Source: Escherichia phage naam. Taken from it: a DNA stretch of 64,000 nucleotides. The stretch lies in sequence record MN850630.1; one strand, given 5' to 3'. A program made the translations under genes and the position numbers. Below are positions 28,949-64,000 of the stretch, one piece after another (position 1 is the stretch's first letter; each line of letters starts with the position of its first letter). A model generated the notes under the pieces. That model was not told where the DNA came from. It saw only the letters and a program-made list of their open reading frames with translations, and searched no databases.

Positions 28949-29992
28949 TTATTTAACGTGTTTGAAAATACCTGCCAACTCGGTCATTGTCATGCGGGTG
29001 GTCTTCATAAGATCTGTCATAGCTTTCTCCATAATTGGAGATACTACCATAAAATTTCCTTTAGTGAAACCTTTATTCCAGTCGGTCACCAACAGTGGTT
29101 TAAGTCCAGCCCCGAGACGTTCACCTGTTAAAGCACAGCATTTGCGAATATACGAACTCTTAAATTGGCTGAACGACAGATCAACTTTCATACCTGCATC
29201 GTAGAACGTTTGACAATAGAAAGTATAAGCCTTAGCAATCTCAACATCATCAGGCAGTGCAGGAACCTCTTCTGCAATCTCCTCTTCGACCTTCTGAGGC
29301 TCTTTTTCCTCTTCAGGAGTCTGTTCTTCAATTTCTTCTGTCACAGTCTCGTTCACGATGTCTGAAATATGTTTGTTGGCTGCACGATCAGCCATGAAAT
29401 TTTTAAAATCCTGCATTGGTGACATATCTTCTTCCTCTTCGTCAAATAGTGCTAGTTTATCTTCTTCTGTCCCGTATTGCAAGATGAAATCTTCAAAAGT
29501 ATAATCACCTTTCAATTTCTCCATACGCTCTTCGCTCAGGTGGAGCATCATCTGCTGGACAATTTTTCGATCGGTTTTGTCTTTAATCAGGATTGCAGTC
29601 TTTTTATCTACCAGACAGTCTTTCAGAGCGTTGCACCTCAACCCTACCACACAACAATTGTCAATTGCGTAAGGACCTTCATCATCTATACGCTCTAAAG
29701 ATGGGTAGAAAGGATTTCCCAGTCCGTTTTCATCTGTGTGCATGTCGAAAGGTATAAGAGTGTAGTCGCATACCCCTTCTCCTAAAAGTTTTTTACCAAA
29801 TAGGAGGTATTCTTCCCACGACAGGTCGAACTCTATATCTCGTTTCCGTGCATTATTCTGTTTGCGTCTATATTTTTTGAGCAGGCGCTCTAACTCTTCT
29901 GGTGTATAATATTTTTCAAGATTCATGAGTTGTCTCTCGTGCTCTGTAAGTGAAGAAATCGTATCAATTGTCTCAACAGATGTCAACATCAA
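28949..29992 (-). CDS. Hypothetical protein with very acidic central linker and possible degenerate HNH-like motif
   Basis: 347 aa; TTG/ATG start at the divergent promoter hub; LERIDDEGPYAIDNCCVVGLRCN; long D/E-rich stretch. Confidence 0.55.
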   Translation of the reverse strand: MMLTSVETIDTISSLTEHERQLMNLEKYYTPEELERLLKKYRRKQNNARKRDIEFDLSWEEYLLFGKKLLGEGVCDYTLIPFDMHTDENGLGNPFYPSLERIDDEGPYAIDNCCVVGLRCNALKDCLVDKKTAILIKDKTDRKIVQQMMLHLSEERMEKLKGDYTFEDFILQYGTEEDKLALFDEEEEDMSPMQDFKNFMADRAANKHISDIVNETVTEEIEEQTPEEEKEPQKVEEEIAEEVPALPDDVEIAKAYTFYCQTFYDAGMKVDLSFSQFKSSYIRKCCALTGERLGAGLKPLLVTDWNKGFTKGNFMVVSPIMEKAMTDLMKTTRMTMTELAGIFKHVK

Positions 29993-39250: not shown

Positions 39251-39588
39251 GTTTGTGGAGAAATATAGTTAACTACGTGTGTGGCAATCCAACTCCTGAA
39301 GAGAAGGATGTTTTGATTCACGATTTTACTAAAAGATCCCGTGAAAAAGATCTACTGTTAACAAAGGTGACTGATAAAGACCCTGCAGTAGGGGACTGGG
39401 CAGGTTTTGCGTTTACATCGGACAAATACACCTTTAACAAAGGTGACTACCTTGTTGTGGATTTTAACGAAGACATCGAGGGTGCTGAACCTTACTATCA
39501 GACCCTTATTGTTGCAGGGTGTGTTAATCTATCTTCAGGCATGCACAGTTTGATTCTTTTTGAGCTTGACTCTGAAGACCTTGAGTAG
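39247..39588 (+). CDS. Hypothetical protein
   Basis: 113 aa ORF overlapping the helicase stop. Confidence 0.5.
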   Translation: MSLWRNIVNYVCGNPTPEEKDVLIHDFTKRSREKDLLLTKVTDKDPAVGDWAGFAFTSDKYTFNKGDYLVVDFNEDIEGAEPYYQTLIVAGCVNLSSGMHSLILFELDSEDLE

Positions 39589-39649
39589 TAAGATGTGAGT
39601 ATAAAGGGGAGGCCTCCTCCCCACAAAAAACTAAGGAGAGCACCAAACG

Positions 39650-40975
39650 ATGAGCAAAACCAAATTAGAACTTACCTGGATAGGTAAAAACGAGCGCAAA
39701 AAGTTAGAGCCGCACATTTTATTAGAAGATTCTAGCAAGTCTTACCGCAGCCAGAAAGTGACCGAAAACGATATTTTTGATAATAAACTGATTTTTGGAG
39801 ATAACTTATTAGCATTGAAGGCGCTAGAGCAAGAGTATGCAGGCAAAGTGAAGTGTGTTTACATAGACCCGCCATTCAATACCGGGAGGGCTTTTGAGCA
39901 CTACGATGATAGCCTGGAGCATTCCATTTGGCTGGGCTTAATGAGGGATAGGTTAGAAATAATTCGTAATCTTCTAAGTGATGATGGGGTAATATTCGTT
40001 CACTTAGATGATTGCGAAATGGCGTATTTAAAAGTTTTGATGGACGAGATTTTTGGTCGTGCAAATCAGTTAAATACCATATCGATGACCACAAATTCCC
40101 CTTCGGGATTTAAGGCAACAGGAGCCACAGTTTTCTCCACAGCAAACTTTTTGCTTGTATATGCAAAAGATCGCACCCAGAAACCGCTTAACAAAATCTA
40201 TATACCTAAAGGGTACGATACAGGATATAACAAATACCTATTAAACCCGGATGACCATTATAAAAATTGGACGTGGTGCAGTATTGCCGATGCGTTTGCA
40301 AAGGCCAATGGCTATAAGGATGCAAAAGAAGCCAAGAAAAAACTACCTGACACATTCGATGATGAATTAGCACAATTCGCAATTGATAATGCAGAACGTG
40401 TATTTCAATCTGTTGCAATTGGTGGTGGTGCTAAAATAAAGAGAAAAGAAACTATCGAGAAGTCAAAGAAAGATAGGGATAAGGTTTATGTACATCCAAA
40501 TGAGGATGTTGAAGGATTTTATATCGCAAATGGTAGGCAAATGGTCTTTTACTCCAATAGACTTTTGGAAATTGACGGTGAGATGCAACCTGCGGAACTA
40601 ATAACTGATGTTTGGACTGATATTAGTTGGAATGGAATAGCAAATGAAGGCGGCGTCAGTTTCAAAAATGGGAAAAAACCAGAAGCGCTTTTGAAGCGGA
40701 TTTTAGAAATGTGTACGCGAGAAGGCGATTTGGTATTGGATTCATTCGGTGGTTCGGGAACTACTGCTGCTGTAGCTCACAAGATGAAAAGACGTTGGAT
40801 CTCAATCGAGCTAGGTGATCATTGTCATACCCATATTATTCCGCGCTTGGAAAAAGTGATCGATGGCGAAGATCAAGGCGGTATTTCTAAGTCTGTAAAC
40901 TGGAAAGGTGGTGGTGGCTTCCGTTATTACAAACTTACCCCGACCTTAATTGCGAAAGATAAGTCTGATCAATAA
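39650..40975 (+). CDS. DNA methyltransferase (N6-adenine or N4-cytosine, beta-class)
   Basis: Catalytic motif IV VYIDPPFNTG precedes SAM-binding motif I SFGGSGTT, the order of beta-class amino-MTases. Confidence 0.8.
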   Translation: MSKTKLELTWIGKNERKKLEPHILLEDSSKSYRSQKVTENDIFDNKLIFGDNLLALKALEQEYAGKVKCVYIDPPFNTGRAFEHYDDSLEHSIWLGLMRDRLEIIRNLLSDDGVIFVHLDDCEMAYLKVLMDEIFGRANQLNTISMTTNSPSGFKATGATVFSTANFLLVYAKDRTQKPLNKIYIPKGYDTGYNKYLLNPDDHYKNWTWCSIADAFAKANGYKDAKEAKKKLPDTFDDELAQFAIDNAERVFQSVAIGGGAKIKRKETIEKSKKDRDKVYVHPNEDVEGFYIANGRQMVFYSNRLLEIDGEMQPAELITDVWTDISWNGIANEGGVSFKNGKKPEALLKRILEMCTREGDLVLDSFGGSGTTAAVAHKMKRRWISIELGDHCHTHIIPRLEKVIDGEDQGGISKSVNWKGGGGFRYYKLTPTLIAKDKSDQ

Positions 40976-56866: not shown

Positions 56867-57109
56867 ATGAAAGGTAATGCTACTCACCTGGGAAATGTAG
56901 CGATTAATGACGCTGAGGCTATCACCCTGGTTGAAAAGGCTATGGCGGGAGCGTTGGAACATAAAGAAGAGTACGAAAAAATGATGGTTAACCTGGCAGG
57001 GGCGGCGGCTGGAGAATTCTGCCCAAAAAATAATTCTAACCAATGGTTGACAGCTCGGATAGTTCTGTTATTCTTATCCTCGCAAGGTGAACAACACCAC
57101 ACTAATTAA
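56867..57109 (+). CDS. Early small protein, hypothetical
   Basis: 80 aa ORF with strong RBS gaagaggagg; first gene after the repeat region. Confidence 0.55.
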   Translation: MKGNATHLGNVAINDAEAITLVEKAMAGALEHKEEYEKMMVNLAGAAAGEFCPKNNSNQWLTARIVLLFLSSQGEQHHTN

Positions 57110-57126
57110 CAGAGAGGATAAAAATC

Positions 57127-57324
57127 ATGAACGCCTACGGAATTAAAGTACGTCGCAACACTCGCCAGGCCGTCACCGATCAAATGGTTTGCCAGGTGGA
57201 CGTAACCATCAACAACGGGCAAGGCCTTTATAAATTCCGTCGCGGTCAGAGCTATACCCGGCAACAGCTTAATCGTTGCGCCCTGACAAAAGGCCAGATC
57301 AACCACTGGTTTAATAAAAAATAA
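57127..57324 (+). CDS. Early small basic protein, hypothetical
   Basis: 65 aa; RBS context agaggataaaaatcATG recurs at other early genes. Confidence 0.5.
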   Translation: MNAYGIKVRRNTRQAVTDQMVCQVDVTINNGQGLYKFRRGQSYTRQQLNRCALTKGQINHWFNKK

Positions 57325-57356: not shown

Positions 57357-57388
57357 AAAAGCACAAAAGACACTAAGAGGATAAAATC

Positions 57389-57787
57389 ATGAAAACCACT
57401 ACCTTTAATTTTGATAATGCGGACTTTTCTTTTTCTGATGTCAAGAACTGCCGCCGTGATCGTGGATTCTACAAGGCTTATAATCTGGTTGGCCTGGACG
57501 ATGACAATAATTTGCACGAAGTAGCTGAGATCCGGTATTATGCCGCCGCCAGCGGGAACACTCACTACTGCGTGTTTTGGATTCACGACAACAAGAACAA
57601 TAAGTACGGTTATACTGGCGGCAAGGCGAGCGGTCACGGTTACGATAAAGCTAACGCAGCACTTGAGAGCGCATTAAATGCTATGGGGATCACTGCCGAC
57701 GGCTGGATCTACGAAGAAGAGTTTTTGTCGGCACTTGCTGACCACCTGGGCTATAAAAAACACATTGTAACATGCGCCCACGAATAA
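57389..57787 (+). CDS. Early protein, hypothetical
   Basis: 132 aa ORF with RBS aagagga. Confidence 0.55.
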   Translation: MKTTTFNFDNADFSFSDVKNCRRDRGFYKAYNLVGLDDDNNLHEVAEIRYYAAASGNTHYCVFWIHDNKNNKYGYTGGKASGHGYDKANAALESALNAMGITADGWIYEEEFLSALADHLGYKKHIVTCAHE

Positions 57788-57793
57788 AAATCA

Positions 57794-57821
57794 TTGACAC
57801 GCTGCAAAATTTAAGTAAACT
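57794..57821 (+). promoter_or_regulatory. Sigma70-like promoter (TTGACA-16-TAAACT) followed by 5'-UTR hairpin
   Basis: Hairpin ggcggga-atgtt-tcccgcc at 57832-57850 between the -10 and the RBS. Confidence 0.6.
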
Positions 57822-57869
57822 AGACACAAAAGGCGGGAATGTTTCCCGCCAGCACAAAGGAAAAAGATC

Positions 57870-58265
57870 ATGAATAAGAACGTACGCCGCATCATGAACG
57901 AACTGGCAAACGATGAAAAAATTATTGATATGCATTTGGTCAACATTTGCCGCCGTTGTGTAACATATAACAACCGCGCCGCAAAAGCGCGTGAGATGAA
58001 CGCAAAAGGCACCTTAAAGCCCTTTCAGGTGGTTGTAAAATCTATAACTAGCGCAGCAGGCCAGGCGCAGGACCACAACAACGAGAGCGCTAATATTGAT
58101 CCGTCTTACGTAATGAAACGGATCCGGACTTGCAAGAATAAAGAGCAGGTATATAACGTCATAGATTGGCTGGACTCCCTGGGCGATGTGGTTTACAATA
58201 GGTTTTCTGCAGCTATCGAGATCCAGCTTGACAGATTGGACGGGAAAGTACTAAAAACTTATTGA
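57870..58265 (+). CDS. Early protein, hypothetical
   Basis: 131 aa ORF with RBS aaggaaaaag. Confidence 0.55.
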   Translation: MNKNVRRIMNELANDEKIIDMHLVNICRRCVTYNNRAAKAREMNAKGTLKPFQVVVKSITSAAGQAQDHNNESANIDPSYVMKRIRTCKNKEQVYNVIDWLDSLGDVVYNRFSAAIEIQLDRLDGKVLKTY

Positions 58266-58313
58266 GTTTATTTTTAGATGGCCTTGACACCAGGGCCATC
58301 AATAAAGTAAACT
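58266..58313 (+). promoter_or_regulatory. Repeated 47-bp element, copy 1: palindrome GATGGCC-N10-GGCCATC around TTGACA, then TAAACT
   Basis: Starts right after the upstream stop; palindrome arms at 58277-58283 and 58294-58300; -35 at 58284-58289; -10-like at 58308-58313. Confidence 0.6.
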
Positions 58314-58345
58314 AACCACAGTTGAGCGGAAAAGGAGGCTTAAAG

Positions 58346-58465
58346 ATGAGCACTACACGCCAGCACACAAAGGTAACCATCATCGTTTGCATCATTGGGT
58401 ACATCCTGGCGCAAATGTTGATGGGTAGCGCCAACGGTGTCGCAAAATTTTTCTTAAACTTTTAA
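58346..58465 (+). CDS. Small hydrophobic peptide (39 aa), hypothetical
   Basis: Not in the ORF track; ATG after RBS aaaaggagg; product MSTTRQHTKVTIIVCIIGYILAQMLMGSANGVAKFFLNF has one predicted TM helix. Confidence 0.4.
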   Translation: MSTTRQHTKVTIIVCIIGYILAQMLMGSANGVAKFFLNF

Positions 58466-58493
58466 TTGACAAGCTAACTTAAATCGATATAAT
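58466..58493 (+). promoter_or_regulatory. Consensus sigma70 promoter (TTGACA-16-TATAAT)
   Basis: Followed by a small 5'-UTR hairpin (gggaa...ttccc) and the strong RBS of the acidic protein gene. Confidence 0.75.
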
Positions 58494-58544
58494 AAGCACA
58501 TAAACGGGAAAACTTCCCAGAACACACAAAAGGAGAAAAACACC

Positions 58545-58886
58545 ATGACTACTATGACCGCCTCAGAAAAAGCTATGCAGATCGCTGAACTGAAAAAACA
58601 GATCGCAGACCTTGAGAATAAGATCGATAACTTTGAAATCGACGAGGACAAGTACGACGAAAACTATGATGAATGGTTAGACGAGATCTACGGCGAAATT
58701 ATGATCGGAAACATTTCTTTTCTTCCGTCGCGTATCCTCAAGGAGCTAGATCCTATCGCTTACCGCTGCGGATTTAGCGACTACATCGACAGCCTGGATA
58801 TTGAGGACGATGAAGAATACCAGGAATTACAGACAGAGTTAGAAGAAGCAAAAGAAGAGCTTGCGGAGCTGGAAGAAAACGAGTAA
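58545..58886 (+). CDS. Highly acidic 113-aa protein, candidate DNA mimic / anti-restriction (Ocr-like in concept)
   Basis: About one third D+E by hand count, very few K/R, coiled-coil-like segments; behind a perfect consensus promoter. Confidence 0.5.
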   Translation: MTTMTASEKAMQIAELKKQIADLENKIDNFEIDEDKYDENYDEWLDEIYGEIMIGNISFLPSRILKELDPIAYRCGFSDYIDSLDIEDDEEYQELQTELEEAKEELAELEENE

Positions 58887-58934
58887 GCTTATTTTTAGAT
58901 GGCCTTGACACCAGGGCCATCAATAAAGTAAACT
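58887..58934 (+). promoter_or_regulatory. Repeated 47-bp element, copy 2
   Basis: Identical core ttatttttagatggccttgacaccagggccatcaataaagtaaac immediately after the stop codon. Confidence 0.6.
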
Positions 58935-58975
58935 TTATACTGTTAACACTGAACTAATGCATAGGAGTTAAAACC

Positions 58976-59221
58976 ATGGCAGCACTAATCACCAAATATT
59001 ATGCCCCTACCAACACCAAAAGCGCCCGTATCATGGTAAAAGGCTTCGGACGTAAAAAGGTGTACACCTGGGATTATGCCTTAGACACGGAAGACAACTA
59101 CACCAACGCGATGACCGATTTTATTAATGATCTGAACACGCGGATCTTGACAAATTATAAAATTACCGATATTGCCTATATAGGGGAAGGCGGGATCTGT
59201 TTTGTCGGTATCGTCAAATAA
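58976..59221 (+). CDS. Early protein, hypothetical
   Basis: 81 aa ORF with RBS aggag. Confidence 0.55.
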   Translation: MAALITKYYAPTNTKSARIMVKGFGRKKVYTWDYALDTEDNYTNAMTDFINDLNTRILTNYKITDIAYIGEGGICFVGIVK

Positions 59222-59296
59222 GCTGTTTTTTCGGTGGTCCTGGTAGCAGGGCCATCTATAAAGATAGTTTATCAATACAATGAAAGGAGAAAGTAC

Positions 59297-59650
59297 ATGA
59301 TCAGCGGGGCAAGTTTTATTATTGGCGCTATTGCTACGGCTTTAATTGTAAACAAGATCCAATCTAAAAACGAAAAAGATAGCAACGCCCTTACAGAATA
59401 CCCGTTTTGGGTATTCAACGACAATGAAGACTATATTATCAAGTACAAGAATGAGAAGGGCGACCAGGTAACACCGCGACCGATCCCGGCTTACAAGATG
59501 CAAGAAACACTATACCGCCTAAAGGCTGGAGGCGCAAAAATCGTAGACTTTTGGGGATACGATCACACAGATCAGGAAGTTATAAAGCGCCGTATCCGGG
59601 CTATTCAGGCCAATATTGAAGTTAGCAAGGGGGGAATATATGAAGATTAA
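59297..59650 (+). CDS. Early protein with N-terminal transmembrane helix, hypothetical
   Basis: ATG at 59297 with RBS aaaggagaaag (track start 59234 lies in the degenerate repeat copy); MISGASFIIGAIATALIV. Confidence 0.5.
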   Translation: MISGASFIIGAIATALIVNKIQSKNEKDSNALTEYPFWVFNDNEDYIIKYKNEKGDQVTPRPIPAYKMQETLYRLKAGGAKIVDFWGYDHTDQEVIKRRIRAIQANIEVSKGGIYED

Positions 59651-59837
59651 TTTTGAGAAGATTGTAAAGCGATCTCATGATTCCGAAGAGCTGCCGGAAC
59701 GCCGCCAGCGCAACAATAAACTGAATAAGCCAAAAAGATTTGGGAAGATCTGGCGGAATCATTATGATCGCAAATTACCGGGCCTGCTTTTGGAACGTGA
59801 ACGACAGGCGGAACGATACCGCCACAAAGGCAAATAA
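59640..59837 (+). CDS. Small highly basic protein, hypothetical
   Basis: ATG at 59640 with RBS aagggggga (track start 59616); Arg/Lys-rich. Confidence 0.45.
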   Translation: MKINFEKIVKRSHDSEELPERRQRNNKLNKPKRFGKIWRNHYDRKLPGLLLERERQAERYRHKGK

Positions 59838-59845
59838 CAACCAAC

Positions 59846-59874
59846 GCCCCGCCATTGTGCGGGGCTTTTTATTT
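59846..59874 (+). terminator. Rho-independent terminator
   Basis: gccccgc-cattgt-gcggggc followed by tttttattt. Confidence 0.8.
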
Positions 59875-60018
59875 CTATCCTACGAATAGCGCCCCTGGTT
59901 GGCCCTGTAAGCGCCAAAAAGGCCCCACCTATACAATCGCCCCCCTTTAACCTGAAAACATCGCTTAGGGCCGTTTTATGGCGTTAAAAATATCATTGAC
60001 AGTGATTTTATTTAAAGC

Positions 60019-60046
60019 TTGACATCTTAAACAGGTTAGCTATACT
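60019..60046 (+). promoter_or_regulatory. Sigma70-like promoter (TTGACA-16-TATACT)
   Basis: A second TTGACA lies 23 nt upstream (59996). Confidence 0.65.
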
Positions 60047-60078
60047 AACCACATCAAAGAGAGAAAGGAGTAAACGCC

Positions 60079-60339
60079 ATGCGTAAATTAAAAAATTTTG
60101 ATAAAGTTGATGTTGTCCTGAATAATTTTTACTACTGCAACAACAAGGCCATTTGGTGGCGTGATAGTTCCACCGATAAAGTTAAAGCTCGCTTTCTCCA
60201 AGGGCACTGGCAAGGCCGTCCAGTGATTAAAATACTGGGGCAACTGGTAGCGTTTAAAAATTGCCGCCGTGTTGATGACGTTGAAGAGATCTTGAACATT
60301 TTACGCCACAATAATTTAAAAAATAGTGTTGACAAGTAA
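60079..60339 (+). CDS. Early protein, hypothetical
   Basis: 86 aa ORF with RBS aaaggag. Confidence 0.55.
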   Translation: MRKLKNFDKVDVVLNNFYYCNNKAIWWRDSSTDKVKARFLQGHWQGRPVIKILGQLVAFKNCRRVDDVEEILNILRHNNLKNSVDK

Positions 60340-60356
60340 ATCTCGATAAGTATACT
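60329..60356 (+). promoter_or_regulatory. Sigma70-like promoter (TTGACA-16-TATACT) followed by 5'-UTR hairpin
   Basis: -35 overlaps the upstream gene's 3' end; hairpin ggcgggaaaacttcccgcc at 60367-60385. Confidence 0.65.
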
Positions 60357-60413
60357 TAAACACACAGGCGGGAAAACTTCCCGCCACTAACAAAGAAAAT
60401 AGGAGAAAATATC

Positions 60414-61037
60414 ATGACCACCGTTAACATTACCACAGGTTACAATTTATCTTTCGACGTGCTGACCGACGAACAAAAAGAAAAAGCTATTGAAATGGTC
60501 CGCGAAAGAGAAGAACACAGCGGGGATAATTTTTTTGCAGAAAGTGTAATTGAACACTATAAAGAATATGTCTTTCCAGAGTACGGCCTTGAAGATACCG
60601 AAGTACGTTGGTCCGGCTTTTGGTGTCAAGGCGATGGCGCGTCAATCAGTGCTGAAAACGTGGATTTAGAAAAATTCTTGCGTAAAGTAAAGGCCCTGAC
60701 CAAGTTCCGATCAATTCGTCACTTGTTCGGCACAATGCACGATGGCGAGTTATCAGCCAGTGTTGAACGTATCCCGTTTAGCCATTATCATCACGAAAAC
60801 ACAATAGGAGGGTGCATCGATACTAATTGGCTAGACCTGACCACCAAGCAAGAGGACAAAGTTGAAGAGCTGGAAGAGCTGATCACCGAGACGGTACGGG
60901 AGCTATCACGCAAGGTTTACGTAGACCTGGAGGAGGCCTATCTTGAACAGTTTACTACCGAAAACCTGATCGGCCTTATTGAAGCCAATGATTGGCGGTT
61001 TGATGTGGATGAATATGGGGAGATGAGTTTTTCATAA
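60414..61037 (+). CDS. Acidic early protein (207 aa), hypothetical
   Basis: ORF with RBS aggagaaaa; D/E-rich. Confidence 0.55.
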   Translation: MTTVNITTGYNLSFDVLTDEQKEKAIEMVREREEHSGDNFFAESVIEHYKEYVFPEYGLEDTEVRWSGFWCQGDGASISAENVDLEKFLRKVKALTKFRSIRHLFGTMHDGELSASVERIPFSHYHHENTIGGCIDTNWLDLTTKQEDKVEELEELITETVRELSRKVYVDLEEAYLEQFTTENLIGLIEANDWRFDVDEYGEMSFS

Positions 61038-61045
61038 ATAAAGTG

Positions 61046-61073
61046 TTGCAATAATCTAAAAACCTGCTATATT
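61046..61073 (+). promoter_or_regulatory. Sigma70-like promoter (TTGCAA-16-TATATT) followed by 5'-UTR hairpin
   Basis: Hairpin at 61084-61103 whose loop contains the ATG wrongly used by the ORF track. Confidence 0.6.
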
Positions 61074-61127
61074 AAAAACTCAAGGGGCGAGATGACTTGC
61101 CCCCCACAAAACAAAGAGGAAAACATC

Positions 61128-61508
61128 ATGAAAAACACTACTAAAGCTATTGACACCGTTATGTTTAACCTGGTTACATTCCGTGAAGATATGAAAGATC
61201 TTCCACGTGAAACAGTGTGCGACCATATCGAAAACTATCGCAAACTAATCAAAGAGTTGCCTTTAAAACGTGACCAGTACGCGGCTAACGCTATGCTTAA
61301 CGCCATGATCAAAAAGATGATCCAGTGTGATTTAACTCTGGCCTATGATTATGCAGGCGGTCGTTTTGCAGTATACAATCAGCCCGTGCCCGGTATGAGC
61401 ACCACCGAAGAATTGCACGCGTTAAATCTGAAACAAGATGTATGGGATAACATGCCCCGCGTGGTGGTGTGGGCAGAAAGCGGAAAGATTTACGGCGATA
61501 ATTTTTAA
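61128..61508 (+). CDS. Early protein, hypothetical
   Basis: ATG at 61128 with RBS aagagga (track start 61092 is in the UTR hairpin loop). Confidence 0.5.
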   Translation: MKNTTKAIDTVMFNLVTFREDMKDLPRETVCDHIENYRKLIKELPLKRDQYAANAMLNAMIKKMIQCDLTLAYDYAGGRFAVYNQPVPGMSTTEELHALNLKQDVWDNMPRVVVWAESGKIYGDNF

Positions 61509-61572
61509 TCAGGTAACAGGCGGCATATTTGCCGCCTTATTGTTAAACAGAACTGCAAAAGAGGTACATAGA

Positions 61573-61944
61573 ATGGAATTTATTATTTTGGCTGTAGTAG
61601 TTGCCTTGTTCAACGCCTGGATCGCTGGCAAGATGGGTAGATCCGCCTTTTTATGGTTTATTATATCTATTTTCCTGGGGGTGGTTGCAACTATTGTACT
61701 TGTTATCCTTGCAATTGTTGACAAGGGGAATAATAGAAAGGGTAAAGTATTTTCAGACCTGTACGACGCTCAAACATTTGTCAACGCCTACTACAGCGAT
61801 CTTCCAGTCTCCCTACGTTGCAGCCTTGCACAACAGGTTTTCGATGAAGCTAAAACCAGAGATCACGCCCATGAGATTTGTTTAACTGAGGCGGATCGCC
61901 TATTTGAGAGGAATAGAAAATATGTGGACCAGCCGTTTAAATAA
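61573..61944 (+). CDS. Small membrane protein (two predicted TM helices), hypothetical
   Basis: ATG at 61573 with RBS aaaagagg (track start 61438 overlaps the upstream gene); MEFIILAVVVALFNAWIAG and LWFIISIFLGVVATIVLVILAIV. Confidence 0.5.
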   Translation: MEFIILAVVVALFNAWIAGKMGRSAFLWFIISIFLGVVATIVLVILAIVDKGNNRKGKVFSDLYDAQTFVNAYYSDLPVSLRCSLAQQVFDEAKTRDHAHEICLTEADRLFERNRKYVDQPFK

Positions 61945-62143
61945 TGCCACGTTAATTAACCCCTTTAGTGAAGATTTGAAGCCAGCCGCCTGGCGGGATG
62001 GATTCAATAACGAAAGCTTTATTTTCAGGCCTGATCTTAAGGAATTTTATAACAATGGATCGAACAACGACAGAGATAATTTTTCTTGTAATGTGCGTGG
62101 TGATAATACTCCTGGGGGCCATTGCAAACCACGTCACTGCTAA
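61922..62143 (+). CDS. Hypothetical small protein (frame uncertain)
   Basis: ATG at 61922 after gagagg; an alternative overlapping frame (61998-62180) encodes a TM peptide, so the assignment is ambiguous. Confidence 0.3.
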   Translation: MWTSRLNNATLINPFSEDLKPAAWRDGFNNESFIFRPDLKEFYNNGSNNDRDNFSCNVRGDNTPGGHCKPRHC

Positions 62144-62163
62144 CAGGAGGAAAGGGGGAGACG

Positions 62164-62283
62164 ATGACACCCAAGGATAAGCCCCGCACCGATAAGGCGC
62201 GCCGTGTTATGGTATGGCTTGAGATCATCGCCCTTGAAATATTGTTAGGCGTAGGGATGTATTTTATCGCTGTAAGTAACTGA
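62164..62283 (+). CDS. Small membrane peptide (39 aa), hypothetical
   Basis: Not in the ORF track; ATG after strong RBS aggaggaaagggggag; hydrophobic WLEIIALEILLGVGMYFIAV; terminator follows. Confidence 0.4.
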   Translation: MTPKDKPRTDKARRVMVWLEIIALEILLGVGMYFIAVSN

Positions 62284-62287
62284 TAAC

Positions 62288-62325
62288 GGCCCCGATCCCT
62301 GGGGCCTAACTTTTCAAATTTTTTT
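62288..62325 (+). terminator. Rho-independent terminator
   Basis: ggcccc-gatccct-ggggcc followed by taacttttcaaattttttt. Confidence 0.75.
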
Positions 62326-62336
62326 CTCCCTGAGTG

Positions 62337-62365
62337 TTGCAATCCGATCCAGAATATGGATAATA
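62337..62365 (+). promoter_or_regulatory. Sigma70-like promoter (TTGCAA-17-ATAATA) followed by 5'-UTR hairpin
   Basis: Shares aatatggataata with the promoter at 63155; hairpin gggga-gacac-tcccc at 62375-62389. Confidence 0.55.
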
Positions 62366-62423
62366 ACAATCAACGGGGAGACACTCCCCACCGCATAGAC
62401 AAAGTTCCAAAAGGAGAAACAAA

Positions 62424-62624
62424 ATGAGCAACAATATCCGCGTTATTAACTTCAAAAAAGAAGAAAAAATTGCCGTGCTGATTGACGGTCAAGAAATCTT
62501 TAAAGGTGATTATGAAGATCATCAAACGGCGATTAGTATCACTCGCGTGATTGGTTACCATAATTTTTACCCTCAAGGCGCTGAGGCAGCAGTAAAACGA
62601 ATTAAAGAGATTGTAGGCCTGTAA
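62424..62624 (+). CDS. Early small protein, hypothetical
   Basis: 66 aa ORF with RBS aaaggagaaa. Confidence 0.5.
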   Translation: MSNNIRVINFKKEEKIAVLIDGQEIFKGDYEDHQTAISITRVIGYHNFYPQGAEAAVKRIKEIVGL

Positions 62625-62673
62625 AATTTATTTTTAGATGGCCTTGACTCCAGGGCCATCAATAAAGTAAATT
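62625..62673 (+). promoter_or_regulatory. Repeated 47-bp element, copy 3 (TTGACT variant)
   Basis: Palindrome arms at 62637-62643 and 62654-62660; immediately after the upstream stop. Confidence 0.6.
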
Positions 62674-62715
62674 TAAACCCTGTTAAAATAATCAGTGCAA
62701 AAAGGAGTAATGATC

Positions 62716-63015
62716 ATGTTTATCCAGGCTAATAATCTTTATTTCTTTGATGGTCAGATCGTAGACGGCGTGGAGGTGGAAATAACCGGGTGCCCTGGCG
62801 GTCAGGTTATGACTTTTCGGAATAATGCCTTTGATGATTCTCATATCGTTATGAGAATGGAAGTTAGTAAGCTGGATGACAAGAAAACACTTATCGACTA
62901 TTCCGTCAAAGATCATCCAGACTACCACATGATCTATGGTGATTTGTGCATTGTTGACCGTGACAAGGTGAACGGCATTGTTATAGCCATTGTGAACGAT
63001 GTTTTCTCTGAATAA
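62716..63015 (+). CDS. Early protein, hypothetical
   Basis: ATG at 62716 is 8 nt after RBS aaaggag (track GTG start 62695). Confidence 0.5.
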   Translation: MFIQANNLYFFDGQIVDGVEVEITGCPGGQVMTFRNNAFDDSHIVMRMEVSKLDDKKTLIDYSVKDHPDYHMIYGDLCIVDRDKVNGIVIAIVNDVFSE

Positions 63016-63154
63016 TTCCGGCAAATGATGCAAAATAAGGCCCCTAGCAGGGCCTGCAGCGATATAATCACATAAAGGCTATGCGGTTGCATGGCCTTTA
63101 TTATTTTAGCGTTACAGCGGCCCCAAGGCGCTTAAAAAATTTTTAAAGAAGTAC

Positions 63155-63183
63155 TTGCATCAAGTCCTACAATATGGATAATA
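63155..63183 (+). promoter_or_regulatory. Sigma70-like promoter (TTGCAT-17-ATAATA) followed by 5'-UTR hairpin
   Basis: Hairpin ggggg-cgg-ccccc at 63195-63207. Confidence 0.55.
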
Positions 63184-63239
63184 GGACGTGTCAGGGGGGC
63201 GGCCCCCAATCATTAACCGGATAGATAGGAGTTAAAATC

Positions 63240-63524
63240 ATGGCTATTGTCACCGTTGGCGATGTAGTGGAAATGGAAGCAAAATACTTAAAAGCGGGTA
63301 TGCATATCCTACGGAATGATCAAGAATTGTTATTAACGATGGTAGACTATAATCCCGGCCAGGATTATCCAAGCATCGACTACTTTTTTGAGTATGTTGA
63401 TGAAGAATTGAAAGAGGATGAGACTTATCAGGGTGAATTCTGCAATTTCTTTTGCCCTGATGAGGTTGTAAAAGTTATCTATCAACCTGGCGTACCTTTC
63501 CCGCTGCACGCTATCAATAAATAA
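63240..63524 (+). CDS. Early protein, hypothetical
   Basis: 94 aa ORF with RBS aggag. Confidence 0.55.
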   Translation: MAIVTVGDVVEMEAKYLKAGMHILRNDQELLLTMVDYNPGQDYPSIDYFFEYVDEELKEDETYQGEFCNFFCPDEVVKVIYQPGVPFPLHAINK

Positions 63525-63555
63525 ACCTGGCGGGGCCGAAAAGGCCCCCGCCTGA
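63525..63555 (+). other. Strong GC hairpin without U-tract (ggcggggcc-gaaaa-ggcccccgcc), contains third copy of 13-mer ACCTGGCGGGGCC
   Basis: Immediately after the stop of the 63240 gene; possible RNA stability or processing element or weak terminator. Confidence 0.45.
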
Positions 63556-63586
63556 AATTATGAAAAATAAAAAGAGGCAAACTATC

Positions 63587-63817
63587 ATGATGGAACAAAT
63601 TAAACGCGCTGAGGCTATTAATGGCAATGTGATCTATTTTGTCAGCAATAACGAAAAAGGCGTACCATATGCGGCGGTAATAGTACAGCCTGACGGCAAT
63701 TATTGGTTTACTGTATACGGATCTTATTCTTTCGGGCGTCCGGTGCATGATAGAATTTTAAAAGTAGCGAACCCAACCGGGAAGAATATCACAGCAGAAA
63801 AATTTTTTGAAAAATAG
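63587..63817 (+). CDS. Early protein, hypothetical
   Basis: ATG at 63587 with RBS aagagg (track start 63560). Confidence 0.5.
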   Translation: MMEQIKRAEAINGNVIYFVSNNEKGVPYAAVIVQPDGNYWFTVYGSYSFGRPVHDRILKVANPTGKNITAEKFFEK

Positions 63818-63845
63818 TTGACATGGCCTTATAAGACTGTAGAAT
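63818..63845 (+). promoter_or_regulatory. Sigma70-like promoter (TTGACA-16-TAGAAT) followed by 5'-UTR hairpin
   Basis: Starts right after the upstream stop; hairpin ggggc-aa-gcccc at 63856-63867. Confidence 0.6.
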
Positions 63846-63892
63846 ATAAATCAAAGGGGCAAGCCCCATCAACGGCAAAGAGGATAAAAATC

Positions 63893-64000
63893 ATGGCTAT
63901 TATTGCAAAGACTGAGATCGTAGGCTTAGATTCTATTCTCCTCGCATATGAGGAAGCTATAGAAATGTATGTGGTTTCCTATGGTGAGTATATCCGTGAA
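63893..64000 (+). CDS. Early protein, 3' partial (runs off the window)
   Basis: ATG with RBS agaggataaaaatc; no stop before the window end. Confidence 0.45.
   Translation, partial: MAIIAKTEIVGLDSILLAYEEAIEMYVVSYGEYIRE

Follow-up and report, generated by a model that had tools for sequence, protein, structure and literature searches.

The hairpin region and its features

We analysed a stretch of 64,000 nucleotides (nt) from Escherichia phage naam (sequence record MN850630.1), called here the window. The subject is a set of short GC-rich hairpins that lie between the promoters and the small genes of its 57-64 kb region. By its sequence, the source phage is a Vequintavirus, rV5-like, infecting E. 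coli. In the 57-64 kb stretch, its identity to Escherichia phage nom is 97%, and more than 100 further genomes of Vequintavirus (rV5-like) match at 91-97%. Related GenBank records annotate this stretch as about 20 small hypothetical genes, every one on the plus strand. Nearly each of these genes has its own sigma-70-like promoter, and many of the promoters present a perfect TTGACA and a spacer of 16 base pairs (bp). We counted 14 sigma-70-like promoters with an A/T-rich upstream tract, leading to the Shine-Dalgarno (SD) site and the start codon of small genes.

Terminators of the ordinary kind, with a U-tract, are present separately in this region (for example, at 59846, 61518, 62288, and 63072). 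Most hairpin-bearing promoters have no separate terminator upstream. The promoter scan of the window found no strong minus-strand promoters in the hairpin region. At 59996-60046, two TTGACA boxes (59996 and 60019) stand 23 nt apart, with one TATACT downstream. Lying downstream of the strong terminator at 59846-59865, they could be a tandem promoter or the remnant of one.

The original prediction, made from the sequence alone, placed seven hairpins between the -10 element and the ribosome-binding site (RBS). All seven are present in the sequence, and their location is borne out. An eighth hairpin (39606-39622), outside the range of that prediction, surfaced in a promoter-then-hairpin scan. The promoters and hairpins are the following.

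57794..57821, plus strand: promoter TTGACA, 16-bp spacer, TAAACT
57832..57850, plus strand: hairpin GGCGGGAA-tgt-TTCCCGCC, 10 nt past the -10 box; ATG at 57870; -14.6 kcal/mol, z -3.4
58466..58493, plus strand: promoter TTGACA, 16-bp spacer, TATAAT (12/12 matches)
58506..58518, plus strand: weak hairpin GGGAA-aac-TTCCC, 12 nt past the -10 box; ATG at 58545; -5.5 kcal/mol, z -1.7
60329..60356, plus strand: promoter TTGACA, 16-bp spacer, TATACT
60367..60385, plus strand: hairpin GGCGGGAA-aac-TTCCCGCC, 10 nt past the -10 box; ATG at 60414; -14.6 kcal/mol, z -4.6
61046..61073, plus strand: promoter TTGCAA, 16-bp spacer, TATATT
61084..61103, plus strand: hairpin GGGGCGAG-atga-CTTGCCCC with one G.U pair, 10 nt past the -10 box; likely ATG at 61128; -14.6 kcal/mol, z -3.3
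62337..62364, plus strand: promoter TTGCAA, 16-bp spacer, GATAAT
62375..62389, plus strand: hairpin GGGGAG-aca-CTCCCC, 10 nt past the -10 box; ATG at 62424; hairpin alone -10.5 kcal/mol
63155..63182, plus strand: promoter TTGCAT, 16-bp spacer, GATAAT; has AATATGGATAATA in common with the promoter at 62337, as read from the sequence
63194..63207, plus strand: G-run/C-run hairpin GGGGG-gcgg-CCCCC, 11 nt past the -10 box; ATG at 63240; fold of the untranslated region no better than shuffles
63818..63845, plus strand: promoter TTGACA, 16-bp spacer, TAGAAT
63856..63867, plus strand: short hairpin GGGG-caag-CCCC, 10 nt past the -10 box; ATG at 63893; -6.9 kcal/mol
39566..39594, plus strand: promoter TTGACT, 17-bp spacer, TAAGAT, upstream of an adenine methyltransferase gene
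39606..39622, plus strand: eighth hairpin GGGGAGG-cct-CCTCCCC, 11 nt past the -10 box; ATG at 39650; -14.3 kcal/mol, z -2.2

A mechanical call of open reading frames begins at the ATG 61092, within a hairpin loop and in frame with the ATG 61128. The latter, with its AGAGGA SD site, is likely the true start.

Position, predicted fold and enrichment behind promoters

The hairpins keep a narrow distance to the promoter. Five of them have their first paired base 10 nt after the -10 hexamer, two have it 11 nt after, and one 12 nt after. Conversely, the distance from the hairpin to the ATG is variable (19-34 nt). The constraint is therefore on the side of the promoter and start site, as expected if the function depends on the 5' end of the transcript. 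The 5' arm begins with GG(G/C)G in all cases, directly after an A-rich start region. The stems measure 4-9 bp, and the spacing between the arms is 3-8 nt. Behind each hairpin follow an A/C-rich linker, an SD site, and the ATG. From the -35 box to the ATG, the cassette takes about 90 bp. The linker contains 0-14% U in seven of the eight window cases, and none of the eight hairpins has a sense-strand U-tract behind it. With such a U-poor linker, they are not sense-strand terminators.

We folded the predicted 5' untranslated regions (UTRs). Five of the hairpins come out as strong, at -13 to -15 kcal/mol, with z of -2.2 to -4.6 relative to shuffles. The SD site is unpaired in every fold. The original prediction described the stems as GC-only, with 5-8 bp. 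This holds for most of the hairpins, and three are marginal by themselves.

We estimated the enrichment with a 7-nt slot, in which a hairpin must start 8-14 nt past the -10 box, for the 14 promoters of the 57-64 kb region. The plus strand of the whole window has 108 comparable hairpins. Seven of the 14 promoters show a hairpin in the slot (binomial P of 1e-10 with the window-wide density, and 4e-8 with the local density of 57-64 kb). The "many early genes" of the original prediction are, then, about half of the promoters and no more. Among the other promoters, three present a different hairpin over the -35 box, and three present none. The promoters at 57047, 57328, and 60019 are equally strong and lack a post-promoter hairpin.

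Conservation among close relatives

We compared the seven sites in 11 related loci, which comprise nine Vequintavirus genomes from GenBank and two IMG/VR contigs. The relatives were taken from the GenBank phage records, and an IMG/VR search with a 207-amino-acid protein gave the two contigs as close relatives. The sites were anchored on their flanks, because indels displace the arms in alignments. Of the 82 orthologous instances, 80 retain a hairpin with 4 bp or more. Each site shows 2-6 stem variants and 2-9 loop variants.

The sites differ in what they conserve. At 57832, the stem is identical across the 11 relatives, and L004 (IMG/VR contig 3300010279_000001) has the loop ACA instead of TGT. 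On the intact stem, this replacement turns the whole 57832-57850 hairpin into the reverse complement of the window version. It looks like an inversion or a template switch inside the palindrome, judging from the sequence. The 58506 hairpin is retained in 11 of 11 relatives, and the 60367 hairpin shows a U.G wobble in L004. The 61084 site has five stem variants, all of them paired. In L016 and L017, its 5' arm has gained an insertion and its 3' arm a C>G change, and the resulting perfect helix is longer (GGCGGGCGA..TTGCCCGCC, -18 kcal/mol). At 62375, a constant GGGG/CCCC stem stands under four loop variants. At 63195, the same pair is G-C in the window, G.U in nom (L001), and A-U in L004. Finally, most relatives present a longer GGGGC-aacaa-GCCCC at 63856, where L017 and L018 have unrelated stems (GGCGGCA.. 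and GGGCGGTA..).

The window hairpin was also mutated at random, with the number of changes matched to each natural variant. For the 33 natural variants, a median of 0.036 of the equally mutated random sequences fold as stably. The combined P of about 1e-17 is overstated, because the variants share ancestry. The structure is kept while the sequence drifts, as the orthologues, the paired and wobble changes, and the comparison with mutants show. The hairpins are non-random and under selection. This conservation of structure rather than sequence is what a 5'-terminal stabiliser calls for.

An alignment of 57 cassettes (MAFFT and RNAalifold) recovered only four pairs, with unequal stems out of register. 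A family-wide covariation analysis is circular here, since the cassette set was selected for pairing. The Rfam scan of 57-64 kb, with a permissive E-value, gave no family above its gathering threshold. As the one sub-threshold hit, the Clostridium-PBP RNA matched at 61059-61130 (plus strand), across promoter, hairpin, and SD site, with 33 bits against a gathering threshold of 94 (E = 0.16). We rejected it as a chance match.

The same layout in other phages

The promoter-then-hairpin scan found 13 cassettes in 25 kb of phage alia (Justusliebigvirus) and 13 in ESCO13 (Phapecoctavirus). Av-05 (Avunavirus) has about five, and the jumbo phage PBECO4 (Asteriusvirus) about 16. The cassettes fill the small-gene regions of phi92-like, phAPEC8-like, Av-05, and jumbo PBECO4 phages, with other stem sequences. 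In alia and ESCO13, the stems are GGGCGGCA-atgg-TGCCGCTC and GGGCGGGAAA-tgg-TTTCCCGCTC. PBECO4 presents GGGGAGAA-atga-TTCTCCCC. The order common to these phages is a consensus promoter, a GC hairpin, a short linker, and an SD site. Considering 59 cassettes from six phages, the distance from the -10 box to the hairpin is 8-14 nt, with a mode of 10.

An orthologous membrane-protein gene carries the GGGGCGAG.. hairpin in the window and GGCGGGAAA.. in phage alia. Different hairpins on the same gene point to structure, and not sequence, as what matters. Apparently orthologous cassettes in alia (L002 14200-14241), ESCO13 (L019 21093-21135), and PBECO4 (L021 21371-21413) have in common the stem GCGGGAA/TTCCCGC and a flank of CTCACT or CTATAA, with loops tag, cac, and ctc. 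From these sequences, the three otherwise distant phages appear to exchange small-gene cassettes.

We scanned IMG/VR for one pattern only, a promoter followed by 10-11 nt and GGCGGGAA. It gave 87 matches, and at least 31 of them complete a hairpin. Several matching contigs match or resemble the cluster B mycobacteriophage Thonko, with GGCGGG-aaata-CCCGCC followed by an SD site and an ATG. The contig L029 is 99.9% identical to Thonko and has four cassette copies in 7 kb. The same layout (TTGACA-N16/17-TAnnnT, 10-11 nt, GGCGGG-aaNNa-CCCGCC, SD, ATG) is present in the high-GC contigs L029, L023, L038, L040, L042, L046, L049, L064, L076, L078, L079, and L098 (56-70 kb), and in L035 and L081 (about 150 kb). 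A different promoter-like unit (..TATAATAGGGGTGGTTGGGCGGGAATAGATAATAAG..), which has no complementary arm, recurs within and between contigs of 72-169 kb (L028, L041, L052, L056, L057, L059, L062, L065, L077, L090, L093, L100, and L102).

Judging by these matches, the hairpin feature is far more widespread than the view of a single phage shows. The rV5 genome paper lists promoters and terminators, and not these hairpins (PMC3606486). In the literature that we searched, there is no earlier description of post-promoter hairpins in rV5, phi92, or phAPEC8.

Repeated cassettes and gene shuffling

The hairpins at 57832 and 60367 have an identical 8-bp stem. The original prediction attributed this to duplication or to a common binding partner. 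Duplication is favoured, and a common partner is unlikely in this phage because the stems and loops differ from site to site. The identical stems seem better explained by cassette duplication or gene conversion, considering a hybrid of two hairpins in phage V18 and a segment, GGGAAAACTTCCC, common to two cassettes. This segment is the 13-nt apical part shared by the 58506 and 60367 hairpins, whose cassettes are 76% identical over 38 nt. In V18 (L012), the orthologue of 60357-60391 is a hybrid hairpin. Its 5' half is of the 58506 type (cacgtaaacgggaaaacttccc), and its 3' half is of the 60367 type (cccgccactaacaa). The composition suggests that gene conversion took place between cassettes, via the common GGGAAAACTTCCC.

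Phage YP-6 (L018 3590-3730, compared with window 60310-60340 and 61030-61075) does not have the 207-amino-acid gene (window 60414-61037). The junction of the deletion falls within AGTGTTG, common to the -35 regions of the cassettes at 60329 and 61046. As read from the sequence, this junction is a recombination between cassettes. We judged cassette recombination from these two cases, YP-6 and V18. As a by-product of their function, the repeated cassettes would serve as recombination points for the gain and loss of small genes.

Segments from the SD site to the ATG are repeated too (57110-57129, 63876-63895, 58961-58980, 63225-63244, 57372-57402, and 61111-61141; for example, CAAAGAGGATAAAAATCATG and ATAGGAGTTAAAA(C/T)CATGGC). 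The entire translation-initiation region thus seems to be part of the copied cassette.

A 49-nt repeat, AGTTTATTTTTAGATGGCCTTGACACCAGGGCCATCAATAAAGTAAACT, is present at 58265-58313, 58886-58934, and 62625-62673, with a degenerate copy at 59221-59269. The TTGACA -35 box of the following gene's promoter lies inside the 7-bp hairpin of the repeat (GATGGCC/GGCCATC). A T-run precedes this hairpin, and none follows it. The 59221 copy retains the hairpin and has lost the -35 box. The annotation of phage Murica places 45-nt terminators at positions that we infer to correspond to these repeats.

Relation to known systems

The hairpins of the ompA and papA 5' UTRs (Emory, Bouvet and Belasco 1992; Bricker and Belasco 1999; listed in PMC3997798) are 5'-terminal stabilising stem-loops of E. 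coli mRNAs. Like them, the window hairpins are short and stable, would lie near the 5' terminus of the mRNA, and precede an RBS that stays unpaired, and structure seems to matter over sequence. Synthetic 5' hairpins that tune mRNA stability belong to the same class. However, the 5' end is predicted in our case, and full protection may not be compatible with an overhang as long as 2-6 nt. The window hairpins are also serial, with one copy per small gene and dozens per genome, and they are tied to a conserved promoter cassette common to several phage lineages.

Promoter-early stem-loop (PeSL) cassettes are described in the T4-like phages RB49, phi1, PST, and nt-1 (PMC2839356, PMC4122927). They share with our cassettes a strong sigma-70-like promoter with an A/T-rich upstream tract and a G-run/C-run stem-loop. 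They also share the SD site and start codon of a small orphan gene, the many copies in gene-variable regions, and the recombination between copies, as at the YP-6 junction. Nevertheless, the window phage is not T4-like, and the hairpin position is different. In our scan of RB49, the offsets from the end of the -10 box were -24 (seven hairpins), -23 (one, overlapping a -24 case), -16 (two), -14 (three), and +9 (one). The RB49 stem-loops are mostly inside the promoter, whereas all eight window hairpins start at +10 to +12. Inside the promoter, they are not in the transcript of their own gene, which fits their interpretation as terminators or attenuators (PMC2839356). At the post-start position predicted here, a terminator would be self-defeating. 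The RB49 stem-loop tested in that work likewise has no U-tract. The closer PeSL look-alike in the window is the 49-nt repeat (58265, 58886, 62625), with its hairpin over the -35 box.

Rho-independent terminators present a GC-rich hairpin of similar size. In contrast, the window hairpins have no sense U-tract, their site is between the promoter and the RBS, and only some have T-rich tails on the antisense strand. A sense-strand terminator was rejected for lack of the U-tract. The lambdoid boxB/nut sites are also small hairpins early in the transcripts of early promoters. Unlike them, the window hairpins have no conserved GNRA-like pentaloop, no boxA, and variable stems. We rejected this candidate on the loops, which differ at every site, and on the lack of boxA in 57-64 kb. 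RNase III processing needs about two turns (around 20 bp) of double-stranded RNA. Stems of 4-9 bp are too short, and an RNase III site was rejected.

The feature combines two known ideas, the 5' hairpin and the promoter/stem-loop cassette. For its post-start-site register, the searched literature gave no earlier description.

A proposed protective 5' hairpin and its rivals

The reading that we favour, tentatively, is that a hairpin at the 5' end of the mRNA limits 5'-end-dependent decay by RppH and RNase E and keeps the RBS free of upstream pairing. The hairpin would be a module in an expression cassette that is repeated in front of small, presumed early genes. This cassette would consist of an A/T-rich tract, a near-consensus sigma-70 promoter (usually with a 16-bp spacer), an A-rich start of 10-12 nt, the GC-rich hairpin, an unstructured A/C-rich linker, the SD site, and the ATG. 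E. coli RNA polymerase (RNAP) usually initiates at the 7th-8th nt downstream of the -10 box. The hairpin would then be transcribed by its own promoter and be the first structure of the sense mRNA, a few nt from the 5' end and as near to it as the A-rich start region permits. It probably forms at the very start of these mRNAs, protecting or insulating them. Folded in the cell as predicted, it would hinder the decay by RppH and RNase E. It would also shield the RBS from upstream sequence, including that of read-through transcripts, which are relevant because most of these promoters have no terminator in front. The effect would be a prolonged and standardised expression of genes fired by the host RNAP right after infection.

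The 5'-terminal stabiliser of the original prediction remains the best fit to the fixed promoter-side spacing, the absence of U-tracts, and the structure kept by relatives. The strand of the RNA also bears on it. Internal G.U pairs outnumber A.C pairs by 13:6, a suggestive count from related sequences, with symmetric detection. In 39 of 56 cassettes, the RNA folds more stably in the sense than in the antisense orientation, against 16 the other way (Wilcoxon p = 0.001), which is likewise suggestive, given that the sequences are related. A sense-strand RNA is weakly favoured.

Several points weigh against this interpretation. Promoter geometry predicts an unpaired 5' overhang of 2-6 nt in the window, mostly 3-5 nt across the 59 cassettes, which is borderline. 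RppH and RNase E need at least two unpaired 5' nucleotides and prefer at least three (PMC8833179). Moreover, RNase E scans past simple non-terminal stem-loops (PMC9943677), so a hairpin protects only if it is truly terminal. The literature that we searched holds no mapped transcription start site or RNA-seq start data for Vequintavirus. The early status of the small genes is presumed from the type of promoter and the gene content. Half of the promoters of the region have no post-promoter hairpin. Three of the eight hairpins (58506, 63856, and 63195) are weak or compositionally trivial when folded; the UTR fold of 63195 is matched by shuffles of its own G/C-run-rich sequence. Three natural variants at 60367 (L011, L003, and L012) weaken the stem. 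Finally, the strand asymmetry is modest, comes from related sequences, and is partly biased by the detection of hairpins.

The hairpins could instead work as a composite of the PeSL type. They would attenuate or stop upstream read-through, so that the own promoter of each gene dominates, and the cassettes would give homology for gene shuffling. The RB49 and phi1 cassettes flank small orphan genes and recombine, and one stem-loop cut the expression of a reporter like a strong terminator (PMC2839356). The window shows the same overall layout, plus the second hairpin class over the -35 box. The YP-6 junction in AGTGTTG of the cassettes 60329 and 61046, the V18 hybrid hairpin, and the lack of a separate terminator upstream of most hairpin-bearing promoters go in the same direction. 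However, the RB49 hairpins lie inside the promoter and outside the own transcript, with a single case at +9. Here the hairpin lies past the predicted start site, where a terminator would kill the expression of its own gene, and the U-tract is absent. A read-through attenuator also needs no fixed distance of 10 nt to the -10 box. The role in recombination is real, yet it leaves the conserved pairing unexplained, and we consider this explanation unlikely. Another explanation is an aid to initiation, in which the purine/G-rich start segment and the nascent hairpin help promoter escape, limit backtracking, or pause RNAP and couple transcription to ribosome loading. Near-consensus promoters tend to be escape-limited, and those of the window are near-consensus. 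The spacing is fixed to the promoter and not to the SD site, with the GG(G/C)G arm right behind the A-rich start region. Nevertheless, no -10-like pause element follows the hairpin, and the promoters at 57047, 57328, and 60019 are as strong without one. We are aware of no other case in which such a hairpin serves generally for promoter escape. The sequence gives nothing to separate escape from stability, and we regard this aid to initiation as quite unlikely.

The remaining explanations concern binding proteins or the opposite strand. A hairpin could be the RNA site of a phage or host protein that represses or activates translation, antiterminates in the boxB/nut manner, or shuts off early messages. 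The stem common to two window hairpins, and the few well-conserved stem and loop types in phi92-like, phAPEC8-like, and PBECO4 phages, are in line with it. In Vequintavirus, however, the loops (tgt, aac, atga, aca, gcgg, caag, cct) and the stems differ and drift between close relatives, and a boxA-like GCTCTT is nowhere in 57-64 kb. The orthologous cassettes of alia, ESCO13, and PBECO4 keep GCGGGAA/TTCCCGC under varying loops (tag, cac, ctc). Within a genome, the conservation extends to the start region and the SD site, which fits cassette copying and not a binding site. Such a protein site is improbable. Antisense terminators would act with a minus-strand hairpin and a T-rich tail, stopping leftward transcription from a convergent downstream block and sparing the promoters from collisions. 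A simple scan flags four of seven hairpins as terminator-like on the minus strand (57850-57832, 58519-58505, 60385-60367, and 62393-62371), calls that follow from the A-rich start region. In phage nom, the small genes of the plus strand meet a convergent minus-strand block about 3 kb beyond the end of the window, and the rV5 paper found no bidirectional terminator there (PMC3606486). Against this, a proximal U-run is present only at 57832 (UUUUGUGU). Most tails are poor (UGUGUGUU, GUUGAUUG), and those of alia, ESCO13, and PBECO4 are UAUGUGAU-like. On average, the sense strand folds more stably than the antisense strand, the region has no strong minus-strand promoters, and a boundary needs no dozens of terminators over many kilobases. 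We hold antisense termination as highly improbable. An inverted-repeat operator in the DNA, where a dimeric repressor blocks the promoter at +5 to +25, would occupy the zone of many repressors with palindromic sequences. But the arm length (4-9 bp), the arm sequence, and the spacing (3-8 nt) vary among sites and relatives. The conserved G.U pairs (GGGCGG..CCGCTC) break the symmetry of DNA and preserve the pairing of RNA. With such arms, loops, and pairs, a dimeric DNA operator is hardly credible.

To return to the protective 5' hairpin, one gene of the phage could be related to it. The gp11 of rV5 was called an Srd homologue (PMC3606486). A window protein (28949-29992, minus strand) matches a PHROG family of HNH endonucleases strongly and, more weakly, those of "decoy of host sigma70" (1e-12) and "Srd anti-sigma factor" (5e-9). 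It adjoins a divergent pair of promoters, at 29986 (minus strand) and 30000 (plus strand). From these matches, it is probably the equivalent of rV5 gp11. The Srd protein of T4 stimulates RNase E. A link between the Srd-like protein and hairpin protection is a speculation. A wider version would make the hairpins an unnamed early-message design of many unrelated virulent phages (rV5-like, phi92-like, phAPEC8-like, Av-05, jumbo PBECO4-like, and cluster B mycobacteriophages). They would mark transcripts as resistant while the phage speeds up host mRNA decay, for example with a Srd-like activator of RNase E, or they would evade a host defence that senses RNA ends. The cassette would be a mobile carrier of small genes. 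We consider that this wider version has a low probability.

Significance

The recognition of the cassette improves annotation. It bears on start codons (61128 and not 61092) and promoter calls, it avoids labelling the hairpins as terminators, and it marks likely recombination points in variable gene regions. Since the cassette is compact and has many natural variants, it offers a ready-made set of parts for phage engineering and for studies of the access rules of RppH and RNase E. A protective 5' hairpin is a familiar idea, and in these phages it is a prediction. If the hairpins are at the 5' end and stabilising, they would explain how large virulent phages obtain a strong and uniform expression of dozens of tiny host-takeover genes from the host RNAP. 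They would also explain how these messages might survive the mRNA turnover that the phage induces.

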